A DNA stretch of 64,000 nucleotides, taken from Candidatus Wolfebacteria bacterium. GTDB taxonomy: Bacteria > Patescibacteriota > Minisyncoccia > UBA6257 > UBA9933. Shown here in pieces: positions 9,282 through 62,227 of the stretch (position 1 is the stretch's first letter; the number at the start of each line of letters is the position of its first letter). The notes beneath the pieces are model-generated. The model had not been told where the DNA came from. It made no database searches and worked only from the letters and a program-made list of their open reading frames with translations. The stretch lies in the NCBI GenBank assembly GCA_024654025.1, contig JANLIR010000002.1, positions 168,959 through 232,958 on the forward strand, written 5' to 3'. The position numbers and the translations under genes were made by a program.

Positions 9282-9797
9282 ATGAGAAATAAAAATCAAA
9301 GAGTAGGCATTTTTATAGATGTCCAAAATCTCTATCATTCCGCTAAGCATCTTTACGGCGGCAAGGTAAATTACAGGGAGCTTATAAAAACTCTTGTTGA
9401 CGGCCGTCAGCTAATCAGGGCTTTGGGCTATGTAGTTAAAAGCGAAACCTCCGATAAATCAGCGCCTACCGGCGAGGCGTCGTTTTTTGAGGCTTTGGAA
9501 AAAGCAGGCGTGGAACTAAGAATGAAAGATATCCAGGTTTTTCCGGGAGGCGTTAAAAAAGCCAACTGGGACGTGGGTATGGCTGTTGACGCTCTGAGAA
9601 TGTCCAGTTTTTTGGATGTCATAATTTTAGTTACTGGCGACGGCGATTTTGAACCGCTTGTTGAATATATCCAGTGGGGCATGGGCAGGATTGTTGAAGT
9701 TGCCGCTTTCAGTTATAATACTTCATCGAAATTAAAAGAAGCGGCCGATCTTTTTATTAATTTAGAAAAAAATCCCAGAATAATGATAAAAAAATAA
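9282..9797 (+). CDS. NYN/LabA-like (PIN-like) domain protein
   Basis: RVGIFIDVQNLYHSA...ILVTGDGDFEPLV, the hallmark of NYN domain proteins. Confidence 0.8.
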   Translation: MRNKNQRVGIFIDVQNLYHSAKHLYGGKVNYRELIKTLVDGRQLIRALGYVVKSETSDKSAPTGEASFFEALEKAGVELRMKDIQVFPGGVKKANWDVGMAVDALRMSSFLDVIILVTGDGDFEPLVEYIQWGMGRIVEVAAFSYNTSSKLKEAADLFINLEKNPRIMIKK

Positions 9798-9798
9798 A

Positions 9799-11910
9799 AT
9801 GCTTGAATCCAAAGAATTTTCAATTGATTTTCAAGGGAAACCCTTGAGCTTAAAAGTTTCCAAAATTGCCGAGCAAGCCAACTCGGCTGTTTTAGGCCAG
9901 TACGGCGATACCGTGGTTCTAGTAACCGCCACGATGGGCGAAAAAGACCGCGATACGGATTATTTTCCTTTGGTAGTTGATTACGAAGAAAAATTTTATG
10001 CCGCCGGAAAAATTATCGGCAGCCGGTTTATTCGGCGCGAAGGCCGGCCTTCGGAAGAAGCTATTCTTTCCGGAAGAATGATTGACCGGGCGCTTCGGCC
10101 CTTTTTTAATTCACGGATGAGAAGAGATGTTCAAATTGTAATCACTATCCTTTCTTACGACGAAGAAAACGATCCGGATTTTATTTCGCTTCTCTCCGCT
10201 TCAACCGCCTTGGCAATTTCCGATATTCCGTGGAATGGCCCTGTTGCCGGAGTAAGATTGGCAAAAATGAAAGGCGGAAATTTAATGATTAATCCGACCA
10301 AGACGGAAATTAGCGGCAGTGAATTTTTATTCGAATCTTTTGTCGCCGGAAATGAAAGTAAAATAAATATGATAGAACTGGCGGCAAACGAAGTTTCCGA
10401 AAAAGAAGTTATTAGTTCATTTGAAACAGCCCAGGAAGAAATAAAAAAATTGATAAAATTCCAAAAAGAAATTATTCCCAAAATCAGCAAACCAAAAGCC
10501 GAAGTGCTTCTTGTTGAGCCGGATCCGAATTTAAAGCATAAAGTTCAGGAATTTTTAAAAAATAAATTAGAAAACGCAGTTTATGTTTCCGATAAAGCCC
10601 AGCAGCGCCATATTTTGCGAAAGTTAAAAGAAGATTTGAAAGAGCATTTGGTTTCTGAGGGGCTAATTCCGGAAGGAATTGATGCTATTGTAGAGGAAGA
10701 AATCGACGCGCTTATCCATAAAAATATTTTGGAAAAAGATATGAGGCCGGACTCTCGAAAACTCGATGAGGTCAGAGCGCTTTTCGGCCAAGTCGGTTTA
10801 TTTAAACGGCTTCACGGTTCCGCCTTGTTTTTTAGGGGTAGTACTCAATCGTTGGCAGTTACAACTTTAGCCGCTCCCGGACAGGAGCAAATGATAGAAA
10901 CAATGGAAGTTTCAGGGAAACGCAGATTTATGCTCCATTACAATTTTCCGCCTTATTCGGTTGGAGAAATAGGCAGACTGGGCGGACCGGGACGCCGAGA
11001 AGTCGGCCACGGCGCTTTGGCGGAAAAAGCCATAAGGTCAATAATCCCCTCAAAAGAGGAATTCCCTTATACTATCCGTGTTGTTTCAGAGATTTTGTCT
11101 TCAAACGGGTCATCTTCTATGGCAACTGTCTGCTCGTCGGTATTATCGCTAATGGATGCAGGTGTTCCTATTAAAAAGCCGGTGGCAGGCATTGCTATGG
11201 GAATTATTATGGGACAAGCGACAAGCGACAAGCGACAAGATTACAAAGTGCTGACCGATATTCAAGGCCCGGAAGATCACTACGGCGATATGGATTGTAA
11301 AGTTGCAGGCACAACCGACGGAATTACCGCCATACAAATGGACGTGAAAATTGACGGCGTTACCACCGAAATTTTAAATGACGTGTTAGTTCAAGCCAAA
11401 AAAGCCCGCCTTGAGATTTTGGAAGTTATGAAATCCGTTATTGATAAGCCTAGGGAAAAACTTTCAGAGTTCGCGCCAATTATTTTGACAATCAACATTA
11501 GTCCGGAAAGAATCGGCGAAGTTATCGGCCCGGGCGGAAAAATGATTAATATGATAATTAAAGACACCGGCGTTACGACAATAGATATCGAACAAACCGG
11601 AAAAGTTTTTGTTTCCGCCACTACTCCCGAACAAGCCCAAGCGGCGATTGGGTTCATCCAATCCTTAACAAAAGAATTCGAGGTCGGCGAAATTATTGAA
11701 GGCAAGATTATCAAACTTTTGGAATTTGGAGCCATTGTCGATTTGGGAGGCGGCAATGACGGAATGATTCACATTTCAGAAGTAAAAAGCGGATTTGTAA
11801 AAGATATTAATGAAGTTCTTAAATTGGGCGATGTTGTGAGGGCAAAAATTATAAAAGTTGAAAACGGAAAAATCGGACTTTCGATAAAAGCCTTGGCGGA
11901 ACAAAAATAG
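9799..11910 (+). CDS. pnp: polynucleotide phosphorylase
   Basis: Two RNase PH domains (GSALFFRGSTQ, SSNGSSSMATVC, DHYGDMDCKVAGT), then KH (GPGGKMINMI) and S1 (GAIVDLGGGNDGMIHISE). Confidence 0.97.
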   Translation: MLESKEFSIDFQGKPLSLKVSKIAEQANSAVLGQYGDTVVLVTATMGEKDRDTDYFPLVVDYEEKFYAAGKIIGSRFIRREGRPSEEAILSGRMIDRALRPFFNSRMRRDVQIVITILSYDEENDPDFISLLSASTALAISDIPWNGPVAGVRLAKMKGGNLMINPTKTEISGSEFLFESFVAGNESKINMIELAANEVSEKEVISSFETAQEEIKKLIKFQKEIIPKISKPKAEVLLVEPDPNLKHKVQEFLKNKLENAVYVSDKAQQRHILRKLKEDLKEHLVSEGLIPEGIDAIVEEEIDALIHKNILEKDMRPDSRKLDEVRALFGQVGLFKRLHGSALFFRGSTQSLAVTTLAAPGQEQMIETMEVSGKRRFMLHYNFPPYSVGEIGRLGGPGRREVGHGALAEKAIRSIIPSKEEFPYTIRVVSEILSSNGSSSMATVCSSVLSLMDAGVPIKKPVAGIAMGIIMGQATSDKRQDYKVLTDIQGPEDHYGDMDCKVAGTTDGITAIQMDVKIDGVTTEILNDVLVQAKKARLEILEVMKSVIDKPREKLSEFAPIILTINISPERIGEVIGPGGKMINMIIKDTGVTTIDIEQTGKVFVSATTPEQAQAAIGFIQSLTKEFEVGEIIEGKIIKLLEFGAIVDLGGGNDGMIHISEVKSGFVKDINEVLKLGDVVRAKIIKVENGKIGLSIKALAEQK
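11213..11240 (+). repeat. heptanucleotide tandem repeat inside pnp
   Basis: GACAAGC x3 (perfect) plus GACAAGA. Encodes QATSDKRQD. Confidence 0.85.
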
Positions 11911-16767: not shown

Positions 16768-17199
16768 ATGCAAACAAAAAAAATTACAGCAGAATATATT
16801 AGGGGCTTTATTGAGGGCGTGGGAACTTTTACTTTCACAACCTCGTCACGGGGTTTCAATAAAAAGGTTAAAATACCAACTTTTCAATTAAGAATGAATA
16901 TTCGAGATAAACGGTTAATTGAATTGATTAAAGGACATCTCGGACTTAAAAATAGGGTTTATATGTATCATTATCCGGGAACTGATGGCGCAAAACGAGG
17001 GCCACAAGCGATGTTAATAGTCCGAGAAATAGGTAATCTGAAAAATATAATCATCCCTTTCTTTTACGATAAGCTGGTTGGGTATAAAGCAGCCCAATTT
17101 AATAAGTGGCTTGAAAGAATAGGTAAAGACTCGGAAGTGCCAGAGGGATTTAAGATTCTATACCGTCTTCATAAATCCGGTTGGTTTTCAAAGAAATAG
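16768..17199 (+). CDS. free-standing LAGLIDADG homing endonuclease (single-motif type)
   Basis: AEYIRGFIEGVGTFTF is LAGLIDADG-like. 143 aa. Confidence 0.7.
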   Translation: MQTKKITAEYIRGFIEGVGTFTFTTSSRGFNKKVKIPTFQLRMNIRDKRLIELIKGHLGLKNRVYMYHYPGTDGAKRGPQAMLIVREIGNLKNIIIPFFYDKLVGYKAAQFNKWLERIGKDSEVPEGFKILYRLHKSGWFSKK

Positions 17200-19184: not shown

Positions 19185-19206
19185 CTCCTTATTATAGCAA
19201 AAAAAG

Positions 19207-19278
19207 TGCGAGTGGCAGGGATCGAACCTGCGACGGCCGTCTTATAAGGGCGGTGCTCTACCACTGAGCTACACTCGC
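19207..19278 (-). tRNA. tRNA-Ile(UAU)
   Basis: GCGAGTG TA GCTC AGTGGTA GAGC A CCGCC CTTATAA GACGG CCGTC GCAGG TTCGATC CCTGC CACTCGC A. One C-A mismatch in the anticodon stem. Confidence 0.75.
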
Positions 19279-19394
19279 AAATTATTTCATAACCAGCTGC
19301 CTGTCCGCCGCAGTCCGCCTATTGGCGGACGAAGGAGGAAGCTACACGCGCAAAGATAGCAATAAATATAGCAAAAACTTTTGTATAGTCAAAG

Positions 19395-32570: not shown

Positions 32571-33815
32571 ATGAGGCGTTTCTATTTTGATTACGCTGCT
32601 ACTACTCCGATTGACCCAGAGGTTTTAAAAGAAATAAATTCTAATTTAAGGAATAATTTTGGCAATCCCGGATCGCTCAATTTTTTCGGGCAAGCCGCAA
32701 TGGCAATGGTTGATAAATCGCGCGAAAAAATCGCCAACGCAATCAACGCTGATTTTCGGGAAATAATTTTTACCGGATCCGCGACGGAGGCAAACAATCT
32801 CGCACTCAGAGGAATACTAAAAAACGCCCGCCTGCGCCAAGGCTTCGGCGGGCAGGTAAAAACTAAAAGCAAAAAACCGAGAATAATTGTTTCAGCTATT
32901 GAACACGAATCTATTTTAGAAACTGCTAGAGATTTATCCGCCAGAGGCGGATCCGCCTTTGGCGGAGAAAAAGAAGGCGTGGAAATTATTTATTTGCCGG
33001 TTGATAAAAACGGCGTTGTGGATTTAAAGAAGTTAGAGAACGCATTGAACGAAAGAACGATTTTGGTTTCAATAATGTACGCGAACAACGAAACCGGAGT
33101 CATACAACCAATAGCAGAAATCGCCGAAATTATAAAAAAATTCAAAGAAAAAAAATACCCTAAACCCTACACCCTAAACCCTACACCCTATTTTCACACC
33201 GACGCTGTCCAGGCGTTCCAATTTCTGGATTGCAATATTAAAAACTTAGGGGTAGATTTAATGACTTTATCGGCTCATAAAATTTACGGACCAAAAGGAA
33301 TTGGCGCGTTATACGTACGCAACTCACAACTCACAACCTACAACTTACAACCAATAATTACTGGAGGAAAACAAGAATTTGGATTAAGATCCGGCACTGA
33401 AAACGTTGCCATGATAGCTGGTTTCGCCAAAGCAATTGAATTGGCAAATGAGAAACGGGAAAAAGAGAAAAAAAGAATTTTTTTGCTGGCGCAATATTTT
33501 TTTAAAGAAATAAAAAAGATTGTTCCGAGCGCCCAACTAAACGCAGGGAAGGCCAAGCGGCTGCCTAATATTTTAAATATCGCTTTCTCGGGTTATGACG
33601 CGGAGAGTTTGCTGATAAAATTTGACCTTAACGGCACTGCTGTTTCCCGAGGCTCGGCGTGTATGGCGCGTTCGTCTCAGTCGTCTTATGTATTAAAAGA
33701 AATGGGACTAAGTGAAAGCGAGCAGCGCTCCAGTTTGCGGTTTAGCTTCGGCAGATTTACAACAAAAGAAGAAATGTCTAAAGCCTTGAAAATTATAAAA
33801 AAAACATTAAAATAG
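32571..33815 (+). CDS. cysteine desulfurase (IscS/NifS family)
   Basis: YFDYAATTP, FTGSATEANN, SAHKIYGPKGIGALYVR (PLP Lys), RSGTENV, SRGSACM (active Cys). Start placed at MRRFYF. Confidence 0.9.
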   Translation: MRRFYFDYAATTPIDPEVLKEINSNLRNNFGNPGSLNFFGQAAMAMVDKSREKIANAINADFREIIFTGSATEANNLALRGILKNARLRQGFGGQVKTKSKKPRIIVSAIEHESILETARDLSARGGSAFGGEKEGVEIIYLPVDKNGVVDLKKLENALNERTILVSIMYANNETGVIQPIAEIAEIIKKFKEKKYPKPYTLNPTPYFHTDAVQAFQFLDCNIKNLGVDLMTLSAHKIYGPKGIGALYVRNSQLTTYNLQPIITGGKQEFGLRSGTENVAMIAGFAKAIELANEKREKEKKRIFLLAQYFFKEIKKIVPSAQLNAGKAKRLPNILNIAFSGYDAESLLIKFDLNGTAVSRGSACMARSSQSSYVLKEMGLSESEQRSSLRFSFGRFTTKEEMSKALKIIKKTLK

Positions 33816-33978
33816 ACCAAAATAATTCACTATAAGTTTGAAGGTTTTACCAAATGGAAAAGAACTCTCTTTTGAGATAACATTAGAAGAGAGGCCAAAC
33901 AATTAATAAGTAAATTAAAAAACTGGAGAATTGAAAGCTTCAAGTATTTCAGTCTTTTAGTATTTTAGTTTTTATAAT

Positions 33979-36651
33979 ATGGATCAATTTCATAGATTTA
34001 CAATTAAAGCTCAGGAAGCGCTTCAGAGAGCGCAGGACTTGGCTGTCCGGGAAAACCACGGCGAACTTAAAGCAATCCACCTGCTCGCTTCGTTAATCGA
34101 AGACGAGCAATCTTTGGTAAAACCCGTAATTTTGAAATCAGGAATAAATCTCGAAGCTTTGACTAACGAAGTTAGCGAAGAAATAAAAAAACAGCCTAAA
34201 ATTTTATCGCGCGGCGGAGTGGGCCAGCTTTATTTATCCCAAGAATTAATGATTATTTTGGACAAGGCCGCTAAAATCGCCCAGCAGCAAAGAGACGAAT
34301 TTGTTTCTTGCGAGCACATGCTTTTGGGAATTTTAGATTTTGAAGGATCAAGCGCGGGAAAAATTTTATCCAAATTTGGCCTCCAGCGCGACACTGCTTT
34401 AAGAATTTTAGCGCAGCTTAGGGGGTCAATGAGAATAACCGACGAAACCCCAGAAACAAAATTCCAGGTTTTAGAAAAATATGCCATTAATCTTACCGAA
34501 TCTGCGCGCCAGGGAAAACTTGATCCGGTTATCGGCCGCGAGGAAGAACTAAAGAGGCTCATCCAGGTTCTTAGCCGGAGAACAAAAAATAATCCTGTTT
34601 TAATAGGAGAATCGGGCGTCGGAAAAACTGCCATTGTCGAAGGATTGGCGCAAAGAATCATTGCCGGAGACGTTCCCGAGCCTCTAAAAGGCAAGGAAAT
34701 TATAATGCTTGATCTCGGATCTCTTATAGCCGGCACGAAATTCAGAGGCGAGTTTGAAGACCGATTAAAAGCCTTTATTAAAGAAGTTCAAAACTCAGCA
34801 GGAAAAATTATTCTTTTTATTGATGAAATTCACATGATTGTGGGAGCCGGTTCAGCGGAAGGCGCGGTTGATGCTTCTAATTTATTAAAACCGGCTCTGT
34901 CTCGGGGAGAGCTTCACGCAATCGGCGCGACAACCACTACCGAATACCGACGCTATATTGAAAAAGACGCGGCGCTCGAAAGAAGATTCCAGCCCATCAT
35001 TGTTGAAGAGCCTTCAATTGACGACAGCATTTCCATATTAAGAGGGCTCAAAGAAAAATACGAAGTTCATCACGGCATTAGAATCAGCGACGAAGCAATT
35101 ATTGCCGCCGTTAATTTGTCGGCGCGTTATATTACCGACAGATTTTTACCCGATAAAGCGGTTGATTTAATAGACGAGGCTGGTTCGGCAAGGAGGCTCG
35201 AAACCGAAAGCTTGCCGGGAGAAATCGATAAAATCAGGCACGAAATTTTACGCTTGGAAATAGAAAAATCCGCCCTTCAAACAGAGAGCGCGAGCAAATC
35301 AAAAGACCGTTTGAAAGAAATAGAAAAAGAACTCAGCGCCTTAAAAGAAAAAAACGACGAATTGTCGGCAAAGTGGCACGCTGAAAAAATAACTTTCGAA
35401 GAATTCCATAATCTTAGAAAGCGCATAGAAACTTTAAAGCGCGAAGCGGAAATGGCCGAGCGGGAAGGCAATTTGGAAAAAGTCGCTAAAATTCTTTACG
35501 GCGAATTGCCTCAAGCGGAAAAAGAAGAGAAAATTTTTGAAAAGAAATTTATGGTCGCTGAAAGAAAAACAGACATTAAAAACAAAAAGGGCAAGGATAA
35601 ATTTATAAAAGAAGCGGTTGACGAAGAAGATATTGCCCGCGTTGTTTCCAACTGGACAGGAATTCCTGTTTCAAAAATGCTTGAAAGCGAAGCGCAAAAA
35701 TTAAGCCGCATTGAAGAAGTTTTATCCAAAAGAGTTGTCGGTCAGGAGCAGGCTATAAAAGCTGTGGCCAATGCTTTGAGGCGCGCCAGAACCGGATTAA
35801 CCGAAGAACAGCGGCCTTTGGGGAGCTTTATGTTTTTGGGTCCGACAGGAGTCGGAAAAACAGAATTAGTAAGGGCGCTTTCGGAATTTATGTTTAACGA
35901 CGAAAAATCGCTTGTAAGAGTGGACATGTCCGAATATATGGAAAGGCATTCTGTTTCTCGGTTGATTGGTTCTCCTCCGGGCTATGTCGGTTATGAAGAG
36001 GGTGGCCGTTTAACCGATTCTATCCGGCACAAGCCGTACAGCTTGATTTTATTTGATGAAATCGAGAAGGCTCATCCCGATGTTTTTAATATCCTTTTGC
36101 AAATTTTTGATGACGGCCGATTGACCGACGGCAAGGGGAAAACCGTTAATTTCAAAAATAGCATAATAATTTTGACTTCAAATGTCGGCAGCGAATATTT
36201 CCAGGAAATTTCCCGCCTCGGTTTTGAGGTTCCGGGCAAAAAAGTGCAATCGGAGGCTAGTGAAAAAGCCGAACTTTTCAAGGAAAAGGTATTGGAAAAA
36301 CTTAAAGAAAATTTCCGACCGGAATTTTTGAACCGCTTAGACGAAATCGTCGTTTTTAATTCTCTGGGCTCGCAAGAGATTGAAAAAATAGTGGAAATTC
36401 AGCTTGAACAGGTCAGAAAAAGGCTGGCGAAAAGAAATCTTAATATCGTAATAGATGAGTCGGTTAAAAAATACATAACCCAAGAAGGATTTGATCCGGA
36501 TTTCGGCGCAAGGCCGATAAAAAGAATGATTCAAAAAGCAATTTTGGATCAATTGGCGGACCAGCTTATAAAAGGAAAATTCGAGAATGTTAAAAAAATT
36601 AAAATCAGCTTCAAAAACTCTCATCTTTCCATTGTTCCCGCCCGCGGTTAA
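33979..36651 (+). CDS. clpB: chaperone ClpB (AAA+ disaggregase)
   Basis: Clp-N repeats, two Walker A sites ([16 protein letters not shown]), long coiled-coil M domain, C-terminal GARPIKR. Confidence 0.95.
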
Positions 36652-40935: not shown

Positions 40936-40968
40936 GCCCCGCACCAAAACAAGTGTTGGTGCGGGGGC
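40936..40968 (+). terminator. polX terminator hairpin (CCCCGCAC family)
   Basis: CCCCGCACCAA aacaagtg TTGGTGCGGGG. Confidence 0.6.
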
Positions 40969-48742: not shown

Positions 48743-50074
48743 ATGTCAAAAACTTCCAAAAAAGAAAACAAAAAAGAAAAAAGGGTGAAAAAGGTCAGAC
48801 AACTTCCCCAATCTCCAAAAGGAATGCACGATATATTGCCTGAGGACCAGCCTCTTTGGGAAAGAATCAGAAACAAAGCAAGAAGCATTGCCGGTCTTTA
48901 TAGTTTTTCTCGAATCGACACCCACATCGTGGAGAAAGCCGAAATTTTTGAGCGCGGCGTTGGCCAAGAATCGGAGATTGTCCAAAAGCAAATGTTTTAT
49001 ATAAAAACCCCTGCCCGCTCGGCAGGCGGGAAAGACGACGATAAGCTGGCTTTGCAGCCCGAAGGCACCGCTTCGGTAATGAGATCATATTTTGAAAACG
49101 GTTTAAGTCGCATGGGTCAGCCTGTCAAGCTTTATTACGAAGCGCCAATGTTCCGTTACGAACAGCCGCAGCAAGCGAGGTTTAGGCAGTTTTACCAATT
49201 TGGGATAGAAATTTTAGGCGGCGAGAGCGAACCGGCTTATGACGCTCAAGCCATGCTTATTCCTTATAAAATATTGGAAAGTTTAAAAGTAAAAAATATC
49301 ACCATTAAAATAAATAGCATCGGTTGCCATAATTGCCGCGGCAATTTTTTGAAAAAACTCCAGCAGTATTATAAAAGACATCAAAAAGATACTTGCAAAG
49401 ATTGCGAAAAAAGAATCAGCTCTAATCCGATGCGCCTCTTGGATTGTAAAAACGAAAAATGCCAGCCCATTAAAGCCGGAGCGCCGGTAATTTTGGATTT
49501 TTTATGCAGCCAGTGCAAAGCGCATTTTAAAAAAGTTATGGAATTCGCCGATGAATTAAAATTGCCTTATGTAATCGACCATCTTTTGGTTCGAGGCCTT
49601 GATTATTACAACCGCACGGTGTTCGAAATTTTCAGTGAAAAAGCTCCGTTCGCTTTGGTAGCCGGAGGAAGATACGATTATTTGTCGGAAATGCTCGGGC
49701 AAGGGAGAATCGCCGCTGTGGGAAGCAGTATTGGTTTAAACAGGGTTGCGGGAGTTTTAAAAGAGGAGGTGAAAGGGGTTTTAAGGAGCCAGCCGAAAGT
49801 TTTTTTGATTCATCTTGGCGATGCGGCAAAAAAGAAAGGCCTTAGTTTAATCCAAAAACTAGTAGAAGAAGGGATAAGTATCGGAGAGTCTTTCGGCAGG
49901 GAATCATTAAAGTCCCAGCTTCGGATGGCTGACAAGGAAAAAGCGCTTTTAGCGTTAATTATCGGGCAAAAAGAAGTTTTTGAAGAAAGCGTGATTGTCC
50001 GCGATATGACTAGCGGCGTTCAGGAAACGATTCCTTTAACCAAAATTATCGAGGACATTAAAAAGAGAACATAA
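48743..50074 (+). CDS. hisS: histidine--tRNA ligase
   Basis: PKGMHDILPED, LQPEGTAS, FRYEQPQQARFRQFYQFG (motif 2), GGRYD (motif 3), C-terminal anticodon-binding domain. Confidence 0.93.
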   Translation: MSKTSKKENKKEKRVKKVRQLPQSPKGMHDILPEDQPLWERIRNKARSIAGLYSFSRIDTHIVEKAEIFERGVGQESEIVQKQMFYIKTPARSAGGKDDDKLALQPEGTASVMRSYFENGLSRMGQPVKLYYEAPMFRYEQPQQARFRQFYQFGIEILGGESEPAYDAQAMLIPYKILESLKVKNITIKINSIGCHNCRGNFLKKLQQYYKRHQKDTCKDCEKRISSNPMRLLDCKNEKCQPIKAGAPVILDFLCSQCKAHFKKVMEFADELKLPYVIDHLLVRGLDYYNRTVFEIFSEKAPFALVAGGRYDYLSEMLGQGRIAAVGSSIGLNRVAGVLKEEVKGVLRSQPKVFLIHLGDAAKKKGLSLIQKLVEEGISIGESFGRESLKSQLRMADKEKALLALIIGQKEVFEESVIVRDMTSGVQETIPLTKIIEDIKKRT

Positions 50075-51858: not shown

Positions 51859-52869
51859 TTATTTTTTTAGTCCGGTTGCTTTTTTTACCTCCTCTAGTTT
51901 TTTGTTCGCAATCGCCTCCGCTTTTTTATTTCCAACTGCCATTAATTTTTCTATTTTCCTGATATTTTTGGAAAGCAGATTTTTCTTTTTCTGAAATACC
52001 ATAAAATAATCGATTATCACGTTTGATAAATCTTTTTTAAATTGGCCGTAAGATTTATTTTCGTATTTTTTTTCAATTTTCTTCATCGGCAAACCGCTCA
52101 AGTTTTTGTAAATTCTGAGCAGATTGGAAATCGCCGGTTTTGATTCGGGCAGGTATTTTATTTCTTTTCCGGAATCGGTCACAGCCCGTTTTATTTTCTC
52201 CGTCATAATCTGCGGCGAGTCGTCTAAAAATAAACATCCTTCGGGCATTGATTTGGACATTTTTTTATTTGGGTTGTCCAAGCTCATTATTTTCGGTGTC
52301 TCGGTTAAAAGCGGTTTTGGTTCAATAAAGACCTTGCCGCCTGCCCGCCCGTCTGGCGGGAATTTTTTATTGAATTTTCGCGCCAATGTTCTCGTTAATT
52401 CCAAGTGCTGGAGTTGGTCTTCGCCAACAGGAACAAATTCGGCGTCGTAAAGCAAAATATCAGAGGCCATTAAAACCGGATAATCAAATAACCCGACATT
52501 TATATTTTCTCGCTGGTGTTCGGATTTATCTTTGAACTGCGTCATTCTTTTTAATTCTCCAAACGGCGTAACGGTGTTTAAAATCCAGGCGGTTTCGCTG
52601 TGAGCCGGTATTTTCGACTGGATAAAGATTGTCGATTTTTCGGCGTTTAGTCCCGCTGAAAGATAATCAAGAACCAAATTCAAAACTTGCCCCGGTTTTT
52701 CTTTCGGGTCGTAACTTTCGGTTATAGAATGAAGGTCGGCAACAAAAAAGTAGCATTTGTATCGGCCTGAATTTTGCAGGTCAACAAAATTTTTTAAAGC
52801 CCCTAAATAATTTCCTATGTGAAGTTTCCCTGTCGGCTGGATTCCTGAAATTAAAATCGGTTTGGACAT
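51859..52869 (-). CDS. trpS: tryptophan--tRNA ligase
   Basis: SGIQPTGKLHIGNYLG (HIGH), KMSKS. Confidence 0.93.
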   Translation of the reverse strand: MSKPILISGIQPTGKLHIGNYLGALKNFVDLQNSGRYKCYFFVADLHSITESYDPKEKPGQVLNLVLDYLSAGLNAEKSTIFIQSKIPAHSETAWILNTVTPFGELKRMTQFKDKSEHQRENINVGLFDYPVLMASDILLYDAEFVPVGEDQLQHLELTRTLARKFNKKFPPDGRAGGKVFIEPKPLLTETPKIMSLDNPNKKMSKSMPEGCLFLDDSPQIMTEKIKRAVTDSGKEIKYLPESKPAISNLLRIYKNLSGLPMKKIEKKYENKSYGQFKKDLSNVIIDYFMVFQKKKNLLSKNIRKIEKLMAVGNKKAEAIANKKLEEVKKATGLKK

Positions 52870-54871: not shown

Positions 54872-54949
54872 AAATTTACAAAAGGTGCGGGGTGAACCGT
54901 ATGCGGTTGCCAGTTTCACTACCTGCCTTTTTGTTGTTTGCTGGTGGCG

Positions 54950-55876
54950 CTATCTAAATAAGTTTTTTGGGTTAAAAAACTGAATATGTTTCTCCGGATA
55001 TCTTAAAAATTCAAATTTTTTTGGGTTTTTTATAAAAGCTTGATACAACGGCGTTTTGAAAATCTTTTTTGGCTTAACGATTTTAAAGTTAATCTGGTTT
55101 TTATAATTAGGATTTTTTTCTAATAGGAACGATGCTGATTTATGCGGATTTAACTGATTTATACGGATATTTTTCTTAATTTTTTTGTTATTGGTTATAA
55201 GTTGTCGGTTATTAGTTATATAGTAGGCGGCTCCGCGGTGTTTTTTAAAAAAACTATAATCCGATTTAAAATTTGTCGCCTGGATATTGGATAATACCAG
55301 CGGCTCGCTCCCAATATTTATGCTGACATGGCCGAATCCCGGAGGCACAATAACCTTTTCTCCTGTCCCGGCTTTTATTAAATAAATTCTAGCGTTTTTT
55401 CCAAAATGACCTACAGAATGATTTATTTGAGGACTTATTTCTTGAAAAAGAAAAAGCGCTTTTCCTTTTATAACTTCGTATATTTCCGGGTAGGTTGTTT
55501 TTGTTTGCGGTTTATTCGGGTGAGCGTGGCCGATTGTTTTTACGAATTCTTCGCCTAAAAATCCAGGATTGATAACGGTTATGTCGTAGGTCGCGTTGTT
55601 CTTTTTAAAAACCAAACCATCCTTTTTTAATTTGACGCTTCGATACATCAAATAAAGGTTTTTTATTTTGGTTTTGCTAGCGGGATCTTTTAAAAACCTT
55701 TTTGCTTCGCCCAAAGTCCTTTTTTGGACGGGCAATGAGGAGGCGTCTTTTGACAATAACAACTTACCATCTTTTATTGATATTGGCAAGCCCCGTAACT
55801 TAAAAACACCGGTCTTTTTATGACGCGCATTTGAGAGCTTAATATTATTTTTGAAATTGAGTTTACTTTTTGCCAT
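54950..55876 (-). CDS. cupin-type glucose-6-phosphate isomerase-like protein
   Basis: TIGHAHPNKPQTKTTYPEIYEV (TxGHxH...ExY) and VPPGFGHVSIN (PPxxxHxxxN), as in archaeal cupin PGIs. Confidence 0.65.
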   Translation of the reverse strand: MAKSKLNFKNNIKLSNARHKKTGVFKLRGLPISIKDGKLLLSKDASSLPVQKRTLGEAKRFLKDPASKTKIKNLYLMYRSVKLKKDGLVFKKNNATYDITVINPGFLGEEFVKTIGHAHPNKPQTKTTYPEIYEVIKGKALFLFQEISPQINHSVGHFGKNARIYLIKAGTGEKVIVPPGFGHVSINIGSEPLVLSNIQATNFKSDYSFFKKHRGAAYYITNNRQLITNNKKIKKNIRINQLNPHKSASFLLEKNPNYKNQINFKIVKPKKIFKTPLYQAFIKNPKKFEFLRYPEKHIQFFNPKNLFR

Positions 55877-62092: not shown

Positions 62093-62227
62093 ACCCCGCA
62101 CCTTTTATGGATATATTTTTTTCGAAGCGGCAAAATGGGGTAAAATTTAATCACTTAAAAATAAATATTTGGAAATTTGAATGCTATAATGCTAAGTAAG
62201 CTTCGCAATCCATAAAAGGTGCGGGGT
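62093..62227. repeat. 20-bp perfect inverted repeat pair bracketing the recA upstream region
   Basis: ACCCCGCACCTTTTATGGAT (62093-62112) against ATCCATAAAAGGTGCGGGGT (62208-62227). Confidence 0.85.
62182..62190 (+). promoter_or_regulatory. candidate extended -10 (TGCTATAAT) for recA
   Basis: TGcTATAAT lies 45 nt upstream of the recA ATG, inside the inverted-repeat element. Confidence 0.35.

Follow-up and report, generated by a model that had tools for sequence, protein, structure and literature searches.

A 21-nt GC-rich palindrome inserted in frame in hisS of a Candidatus Wolfebacteria genome belongs to a dispersed family of probably mobile, frame-neutral elements

The DNA analysed here, called the window below, is a stretch of 64,000 nucleotides from a Candidatus Wolfebacteria bacterium (assembly GCA_024654025.1, contig JANLIR010000002.1, positions 168,959 to 232,958 of the forward strand) with a GC content of 39.8%, and it carries on its forward strand the hisS gene for histidine–tRNA ligase (HisRS; 48743..50074), an open reading frame (ORF) whose protein is identical to NCBI MCR4275347.1. 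The GyrA and RecA encoded in the window likewise match proteins of an NCBI Candidatus Wolfebacteria assembly exactly, on a contig of 248,723 bp. Within hisS lies the element in question, E1 (CCTGCCCGCTCGGCAGGCGGG; 49010..49030, forward strand), a 21-nt GC-rich palindromic insertion that is read in frame as PARSAGG, residues 90–96 of HisRS. Its GC content is 86% compared with 42% for hisS, two overlapping stems can be formed (CCTGCC/GGCAGG and CCCGC/GCGGG), and the stem of 6 bp with a 5-nt loop makes it a short imperfect palindrome of the kind known from repetitive extragenic palindromes (REPs). The RNA fold of E1 in a 41-nt context reaches −14.0 kcal/mol, a modest departure from dinucleotide shuffles (z −2.2), and among 959 hisS segments of the same length E1 ranks first in both stability and GC content (z −5.4, 0/959 as stable). 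PARSAGG is absent, as a clean gap of seven columns, from 116 of the 120 HisRS homologues aligned, the only sequences with it being the query, P0001, P0003 and P0005; the Staphylococcus aureus HisRS (PDB 1qe0) shows the matching gap, FKD-------KGD. In the AlphaFold model of HisRS (mean predicted local distance difference test score, pLDDT, 83.8), residues 90–96 form the loop between strands 85–87 and 102–104 with pLDDT below 50 at residues 92–96, which would place PARSAGG at the flexible tip of a surface beta-hairpin. An initial annotation had described a GC hairpin with both of these stems in frame within hisS and a HisRS segment about seven residues longer than that of Escherichia coli, and the sequence, its reading as PARSAGG and the added length were all confirmed. 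A scan against Rfam returned no known RNA family at E1 and, elsewhere in the window, only tRNAs and the tmRNA. Programmed frameshifting at an A-run followed by the hairpin was rejected, as no X XXY YYZ heptamer lies in frame at the hisS or the trpS insert and the zero frame is open. That E1 is an insertion and a member of a dispersed family is near certain.

Two further members were detected in the window, each in a housekeeping gene. The trpS gene (51859..52869, reverse strand) contains E2 (52340..52360, reverse strand; CCCGCCAGACGGGCGGGCAGG on the coding strand), a 21-nt insertion which converts KKF/GK into KKF-PPDGRAG-GK, and a cysteine desulfurase gene (32571..33815, forward strand; identical to P0121 from a Candidatus Wolfebacteria metagenome-assembled genome, MAG) contains E3 (32827..32856, forward strand; CCCGCCTGCGCCAAGGCTTCGGCGGGCAGG), a 30-nt insertion which splits a GTA codon to give KN-ARLRQGFGGQ-VKT. 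On one strand all three elements read CCCGCC ... GCGGGCAGG, and the pattern CCCGCC-N(3-20)-GCGGGCAGG matches three times in the window and not once in 100 shuffles, so that the motif which the initial annotation had seen in common between hisS, trpS and an element at 32826 was recovered, now with exact spans. E1, E2 and E3 also rank first to third in the window by the covariance model R1 (E1 33 bits, E2 30.5 bits), a model built from the copies themselves. Each of the three copies has its own reading (PARSAGG, PPDGRAG and ARLRQGFGGQ; two frames of one strand and one of the other), indicating that the DNA and not the peptide is conserved. E2 matches the family consensus at 18 of 21 bases and is missing as an exact 21-nt gap in seven related loci (L001, L003, L004, L005, L006, L008 and L011). 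At the KF/GK junction of TrpRS, short inserts occur in 18 of 120 Patescibacteria homologues, several of them reading PARAGGG, PARAGEG or PGRAGG, and this site is a hot spot of insertion across Patescibacteria; the expanded insert of P0253 at the same junction is likely to be nested, judging from its peptide.

A weak candidate for a fourth member, GTCCGCCAATAGGCGGACTGCGGCGGACAGG, is non-coding and lies at 19300..19329 (reverse strand) upstream of a tRNA-Ile(TAT) gene; its R1 score of 17.6 bits (E ~0.08) makes it a candidate only. ARAGORN places this tRNA-Ile, whose TAT anticodon is uncommon in bacteria, at 19206-19278 (reverse strand), and just upstream, within 19300-19370, a stretch that looks like the 5' portion of a tRNA (GCGCGTGTAGCT...) precedes the GC hairpin that weakly matches R1. 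The window as a whole holds 16 GC-rich stems of at least 6 bp compared with 4.9 in Markov shuffles, about threefold, in a count that includes tRNAs and terminators, and other GC islands, such as those of argS and yqeY, do not represent indels when compared with the related genomes. Lineage-specific inserts in PNPase were used as a control, with relatives no more than 65% identical to the window and hence as a control rather than for indel calling; 19 of the 20 are neither GC-rich nor hairpins (z > −1.1), ruling out that lineage-specific inserts are hairpins in general. The sole hairpin among them is a 42-nt insert at residues 472-485 of the L045 PNPase (TPGKKSDFPGKSDF, −25 kcal/mol, z −4.0).

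Differential presence of E1 was observed among close relatives when the hisS loci of six related lineages were aligned as DNA with the window, seven lineages in all. E1 occupies the identical position in four of the seven (the window, L007, L008 and L009), the copy of L007 being identical to that of the window, that of L008 reading CCTGCTCGTCCGGCAGGCGGT and encoding PARPAGG, and that of L009 reading CCTGCTCGCTCGGCAGGCGGG; it is missing as an exact 21-nt gap in the other three (L001/L003, L004-L006 and L010/L011). The filled junctions read AAAACC-insert-AAAGAC as against AAAACCAAAGAC at the empty site, and alignment of filled with empty sites revealed neither target-site duplication nor microhomology at the hisS and trpS junctions. 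The insert was recovered at this same position from no fewer than five independent assemblies (two NCBI MAGs, JGI 3300028028, JGI 3300010938 and ENA ERZ27249422), and a single 90%-identity cluster of HisRS proteins includes two members with the insert and seven without it. No damaging instance was met of the added residues being kept where the palindrome is lost, the weakened L008 copy with its PARPAGG still folding at −13 kcal/mol. In a neighbour-joining tree of hisS with the insert removed, L009, which has it, pairs with L010, which lacks it (100% bootstrap), and the window and L007, which have it, group with L004, which lacks it (64% bootstrap); such mixed groupings require at least two changes of state at the site, with three as the most parsimonious number. 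Compared with the dominant variant of the family the L008 DNA has 2 differing bases, compared with the window variant 4; the reverse strand of the dominant variant encodes PARPAGG, the very peptide of the L008 insert, and the third codon positions of the L008 insert are identical at 4 of 7 compared with 73% for the whole gene. Independent entries at one hisS position and conversion of one copy by another both fit the L008 and window variants.

Recurrent insertion at one site, seen at the TrpRS junction, also occurs in the cysteine desulfurase gene. E3 is also present in L104, P0123 and P0124, the homologue P0132 has an empty site (KNVKTK), and the relative P0128/L012 carries a different hairpin there. 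The same gene contains pal30 (32937..32966, forward strand), a 30-nt palindrome TCCGCCAGAGGCGGATCCGCCTTTGGCGGA translated as SARGGSAFGG, which is of another sequence family than E3 and of the same class, with an RNA fold of −26.2 kcal/mol (z −6.65). It is found at the same site in the distant homologues L102 and L103, whose proteins are 58-59% identical, with 28 and 26 of the 30 bases identical, and also in the viral contigs L161 and L162. The contig L104, obtained in a different aquifer study (the Hainich series), has E3 and is missing pal30, and over 7 kb its sequence matches the window at 99.7% identity; about 300 nt around the pal30 site are about 10% diverged between the two, and a diverged tract of this kind in otherwise near-identical DNA is the signature of recombination import. 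A second highly diverged stretch relative to L104 lies in the spacer between the desulfurase gene and clpB (window 33800-34000), with 66 mismatch or gap columns per 200 nt. Further E3-type copies were found in polX of L012 (near-identical, 27/28) and of L008 (diverged), both the window and L007 being without one, in the Xer recombinase gene of L032, adjoining the gene of the CCA-adding enzyme in L030, and in L119, whose copy is identical to E3 at 30/30 bases.

Dispersal of the family extends well beyond this genome. In exact-match scans of IMG/VR, three unrelated contigs were found to contain the hisS 21-mer and 19 contigs the 18-nt core of the 30-mer, at least eight of the latter having the entire 30-mer with one identical to E3, and the 20-mer palindrome CCTGCCTGCCGGCAGGCAGG was matched in 37 stretches. 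As a 20-21-nt palindrome, CCTGCCTGCCGGCAGGCAGG forms clean insertions of seven residues in KsgA (L045) and eight residues in FtsK (L015), whose orthologues are without them, and the copy in the Xer recombinase of L032 is likewise a clean in-frame insertion. The degenerate pattern CCCGCCTGCCGNNCGGGCAGG retrieved 46 distinct copies including those of the window and L007, that is, 44 further ones, on contigs spanning 39-69% GC; all 46 end in CCCG/CCTG ... CAGG/CGGG, 39 have GA as the loop dinucleotide and 5 have AG, the type of the window, and 44 of the 46 lie inside ORFs of at least 100 amino acids, where all six frames are used (PACRTGR, ARLPDGQ, PPAGRAG, PARPAGG, TCPSGRR and LPVRQAG). Chance matches to 19 fixed bases are conceivable in high-GC contigs; the invariant GA loop excludes chance. 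The flanks show a weak bias, with a purine at −1 in 40 of 46 and a tendency to TAAA on the 3' side, and five copies are nested in the loop of another (L164, L168, L172, L175 and L178). At least 28 copies were counted in about 80 kb of prophage-like contigs from IMG genome 2820306284. The carriers examined are ordinary tailed-phage regions encoding portal, terminase, sheath, DnaB, ParB and antirepressors, one of them with a Firmicutes-like terminase. The initial annotation was thus sound in its interpretation and underestimated the scope, the element being present also in relatives and in phage-like contigs of widely differing base composition. A literature search retrieved no account of such elements in Patescibacteria, nor of their sequences and peptides.

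Several of these carriers display further arrangements. In three viral contigs the 20-mer CCTGCCTGCCGGCAGGCAGG interrupts tRNA genes (L154 515-534, L147 2284-2303 and L125 8616-8635), lying inside the D-arm in L154 (GGTAGCTCAGTTGGTA, palindrome, GAGCG) and, in L147 and L125, separating the anticodon arm (CTCATAA) of a tRNA-Met-like gene from its T-arm. Dense nested hairpin repeats were seen in L115, L150 and L151 (all from the contig IMGVR_UViG_3300037242_000417, 60% GC), where a repeat family CCCACCCTTG...CAAGGATGGG with variable inner hairpins occurs; at least six copies of the 20-mer are found there together with 30-mer copies, so that two element types co-occur.

Taken together, the family is conserved as DNA, dispersed and multi-copy, being present in trpS, the desulfurase gene and other housekeeping genes of Patescibacteria and dense in some phage-like contigs, and the hisS segment is probably one copy of a mobile palindrome that is very small and frame-neutral and whose product is a harmless loop of seven residues. 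The unit is a 21-nt GC-rich palindrome with the one-strand consensus CCCGCCTGCCG-RR-CGGGCAGG, and it is likely to be selfish or neutral, and mobile. Its length, a multiple of three, the freedom from stop codons in six frames and the Pro/Ala/Arg/Gly-rich peptides would make it harmless in coding DNA; an element that is frame-neutral, stop-free and loop-encoding can enter genes and survive wherever a short flexible loop does not disturb the protein. In hisS the element would have entered the turn of a surface beta-hairpin, there to be translated as PARSAGG, a peptide that may be selectively near-neutral. New copies may arise by hairpin-dependent, duplication-free insertion, either through a single-strand 'peel and paste' process resembling that of HUH/Y1 transposases or through copy-choice or template switching; the lack of coding capacity and of target duplication, the use of both orientations, self-nesting and the flank bias fit a hairpin-guided single-strand or template-switch process. 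Lineages that occur together would then take up each other's DNA and, by homologous recombination, reshuffle which of them carry a copy. The window has genes for ComEC, RecA and RuvA, and together with the imported tract seen against L104 these make homologous recombination a probable route for the exchange of insertions between such lineages, one that can explain part of the hisS homoplasy. A preference of the element for the loops of host hairpins was ruled out as a general rule, element-free flanks folding no better than random sites.

Several observations weigh against mobility of this kind. No transposase, HUH/Y1 enzyme or reverse transcriptase was detected among the ORFs of the window or of two copy-rich phage contigs (L158 and L160), cultured phage records are without a full copy and give only partial matches at chance level, and the preference at the flanks, for a purine at −1 and for TAAA 3' of the element, is only weak. 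Mobility is read from distribution only, and the copy number in the source genome from three copies in the 64 kb read. The substitution pattern in hisS, taken alone, is compatible with one old, vertically inherited insertion followed by precise losses, and the excess of identical third positions between the window and L009 inserts (6/7 compared with 55% gene-wide) is not significant (P ~0.1). Exact identity over 21-30 nt across hosts of 39-69% GC is also hard to explain by known bacterial mobile elements.

The hairpin could instead be a functional structure kept by selection, the leading candidate being an antisense intrinsic terminator and the alternative an mRNA hairpin bound by a protein or RNase. 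All three window copies directly follow an A-run of the sense strand, so that the antisense strand reads as a hairpin and then a T-run; in a terminator scan of 44-56 kb the two sites richest in G-C stem pairs are the hisS and trpS inserts, antisense to their host genes, both of which present the putative terminator layout, a GC stem-loop followed by a T-run, on the antisense strand only, and E3 has a terminator-like layout on its antisense strand as well (GGCGGGCGTTTTTTAG). In pal30, moreover, 10 of 10 third-codon positions are identical between genomes whose proteins are 59% identical. The A-runs, however, are found in the empty sites too and hence belong to the context of the target rather than to the element, and the layout could be a target preference or a side effect; the copies in KsgA, FtsK, polX and the majority of phage ORFs adjoin no T-run, stems in L103 have decayed with no compensatory change, and the only stem-preserving changes in L008 and L009 are to G-U. 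Lineages that are 90-95% identical and without the inserts keep their genes intact, and with near-identical relatives living without the inserts a selected function is unlikely. A different possibility is that the 21 nt are present in the DNA and not in the protein, as a mini-intron or through ribosome skipping like that of the 'byp' elements of Magnusiomyces mitochondria, with the hairpin as the removal signal. Bypassing elements derived from GC clusters provide the analogy, and removal at the RNA level would rescue the function of the three tRNA genes which the 20-nt palindromes interrupt in L154, L147 and L125; yet all coding insertions verified by homologues are stop-free and multiples of three (21, 21, 30, 30, 21 and ~24 nt), the copy in KsgA has an extra base that restores 21 nt, 44 of 46 copies leave long ORFs open in their own frame, and the changes in L008 are mostly synonymous, as expected only under translation, in which case a peptide would span IKTPARSAGGKDDDK. 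We regard removal at the RNA level as improbable.

An ordinary lineage-specific expansion of the loop by slippage or duplication would make the palindrome a by-product of Pro, Ala, Arg and Gly codons, and as CCN (Pro) and GGN (Gly) are reverse complements, Ala and Arg partly so, a peptide such as PAR-x-AGG easily becomes palindromic. This does not accommodate conservation of the DNA across reading frames and in both orientations, the outlying GC content of the insert (86% vs 42%) or the finding that 19 of 20 ordinary PNPase inserts are not hairpins, and the recurrence of exact 21-30-mers in unrelated genes and genomes effectively refutes it, leaving such an expansion highly improbable. An artefact of assembly or library preparation, for instance a hairpin oligonucleotide built into contigs, would account for identical GC-rich palindromes in contigs of many unrelated samples of varied GC content, as contamination with a common oligonucleotide would give; against this stand the recurrence of E1 at one position in the independent assemblies listed above, the substitutions in L008 and L009, the uninterrupted, in-frame flanking gene and the reproduction of E3 in L104, P0123 and P0124. 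Independent assemblies with substitutions exclude an artefact for hisS and E3, and an explanation of this kind has almost no probability left.

The very small palindrome would be among the smallest mobile DNAs known if it is truly mobile, and it would show how selfish DNA can persist in a genome with almost no intergenic space, hidden in essential genes such as those for aminoacyl-tRNA synthetases. A cosmopolitan 21-nt palindrome with 30-nt relatives, spread among phages and bacteria of very different phyla and base compositions including Patescibacteria by an insertion mechanism that matches no characterised transposition system, and able to colonise essential genes because none of its six frames has a stop codon, is a bolder proposal and is made here tentatively, as one that may well fail; were it true, the exact conservation would mean that the element has spread horizontally only very recently or that a conserved, still undiscovered machinery acts on it in trans. 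Exact conservation over 21-30 nt in hosts of 39-69% GC points to a mobilising activity, possibly phage-borne. The presence and absence of the elements can serve as markers in studies of recombination and strain-level population genetics among uncultivated Patescibacteria of aquifers, and the family accounts for odd Pro/Ala/Arg/Gly-rich peptides (PARPAGG, ARLPDGQ, PPAGRAG, RLRQGFGGQ and PAFAKASAG) which inflate as well as confuse protein alignments and annotations of metagenomes.

Other insertions and repeats were recorded in the window and its relatives. Relatives bear private hairpin insertions of other sequences, including those at L010 5559 and 8904 and at L007 7594, an insert of 36 nt at L012 6795-6830 (window ~38178) whose 12-bp stem, GCCCAGCACCAC...GTGGTGCTGGGC, is perfect, a 21-nt insert with a 7-bp stem at L004 1411-1431 (window ~42886, at the 3' end of the tmRNA gene), and TCCGCCAGCTGGCGGA in folD at L004 6505-6518, which is also found in L102 and nearly so in L032. 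A gene for a reverse transcriptase (RVT_1, ~410 amino acids) lies between smpB and argS at L001 2907-4139 and L010 2145-3371, the window being without it, and L004 has small GIY-YIG ORFs at 1819-2070 and 9671-9928, one of them directly upstream of hisS. The window contains a free-standing ORF with a LAGLIDADG homing-endonuclease domain at 16768-17199 (forward strand), and no rRNA gene was detected in it. In a glucose-6-phosphate isomerase-like gene (54950..55876, reverse strand), 39 nt at 55130-55168 are inserted in frame as compared with L001 and L003; this insertion is AT-rich and made up of two direct repeats, CTGATTTATGCGGAT / CTGATTTATACGGAT, and is of another kind than the GC palindromes. 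Upstream of recA, a perfect 18-nt inverted repeat, ACCCCGCACCTTTTATGG / CCATAAAAGGTGCGGGGT (62093-62110 and 62210-62227), flanks a spacer of about 140 nt; the window holds five copies of the core GGTGCGGGG, all of them intergenic (also at 40936-40967 and 54884-54892) and one of them within a 27-nt segment missing from L001, and these repeats may form a second family, one located between genes, or may serve as a motif for regulation or termination.

By analogy, the nearest precedents for the hisS element appear to be the small dispersed repeats (SDRs) of cyanobacteria, intragenic REPs, Rickettsia palindromic elements (RPEs) and mitochondrial GC clusters. SDRs are elements of 21-27 nt which Elhai et al. 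(2008, Genome Res 18:1484, cited in PMC3116915) reportedly described as 'very small mobile repeated elements'. By their description they would resemble the present family in a size of about 21-27 nt, dispersed multi-copy occurrence, hairpin potential, nesting, absence of coding capacity and lack of an identified enzyme, and the family accordingly shows a 21-nt unit, at least 28 copies per ~80 kb in one genome, three in the 64-kb window, and nested copies. Compared by description only, it would differ from SDRs in being hosted by Patescibacteria and phage-like contigs and not by cyanobacteria, and in being almost entirely intragenic and frame-neutral. REPs, for whose mobility RAYT tyrosine transposases are responsible (Di Nocera et al. 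2013, PMC3733652; Bertels & Rainey 2011, PMC3116915), are 20-40 nt long and carry a tag, the tetranucleotide GTAG or CGTC, at one end (PMC3733652). The family is similar to them in being palindromes of 20-40 nt in which the stems are conserved and the loops vary, with clustered and nested copies, and REPs too are occasionally intragenic, also in tRNA synthetase genes, where they add residues. Unlike REPs, none of the 46 copies has a GTAG or CGTC tag, all three window copies and 44 of the 46 family copies are intragenic where REPs are mainly extragenic, and the same exact sequence recurs across very different hosts where REP families are usually species-specific; neither RAYT nor Y1_Tnp was detected among the ORFs of the window or in L158 and L160, a coverage of 64 kb plus contig fragments.

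According to the summary of Ogata et al. 2000 in PMC3733652, RPE-1 measures ~100-150 bp and is confined to Rickettsia. As summarised there, RPEs are palindromic selfish DNA placed in frame within functional genes, to which they add surface peptides, in a small, AT-rich host genome; in-frame insertions adding residues in this way were found here in hisS, trpS and the desulfurase gene and elsewhere in KsgA, FtsK and Xer, and, on that summary, a length of 21-30 nt and the unrelated hosts set the present family apart from RPEs. IS200/IS605 transposition of the HUH type is likewise free of target duplication, leaves seamless empty sites and involves hairpin structures; only a weak flank bias was seen in place of its fixed tetra- or pentanucleotide target, and no TnpA was detected in the window or in L158/L160. 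GC42 of yeast mitochondria is 42 nt long, mostly intergenic and associated with an AG target duplication (Wu & Hao 2015, PMC4478555). Like the yeast mitochondrial GC clusters, together with the fungal GC palindromes and the 'byp' bypassing elements related to them, the family consists of GC-rich hairpins in an AT-rich genome that are sporadically present among close strains, with stems better conserved than loops and copies that merge or nest and occasionally enter ORFs; unlike GC42, it shows no target duplication, filled and empty sites differing by exactly 21 nt, and its hosts are bacterial or phage and not organellar. The element fails the defining features of REPs, RPEs and GC42, yet works, by this analogy, like the four precedents.

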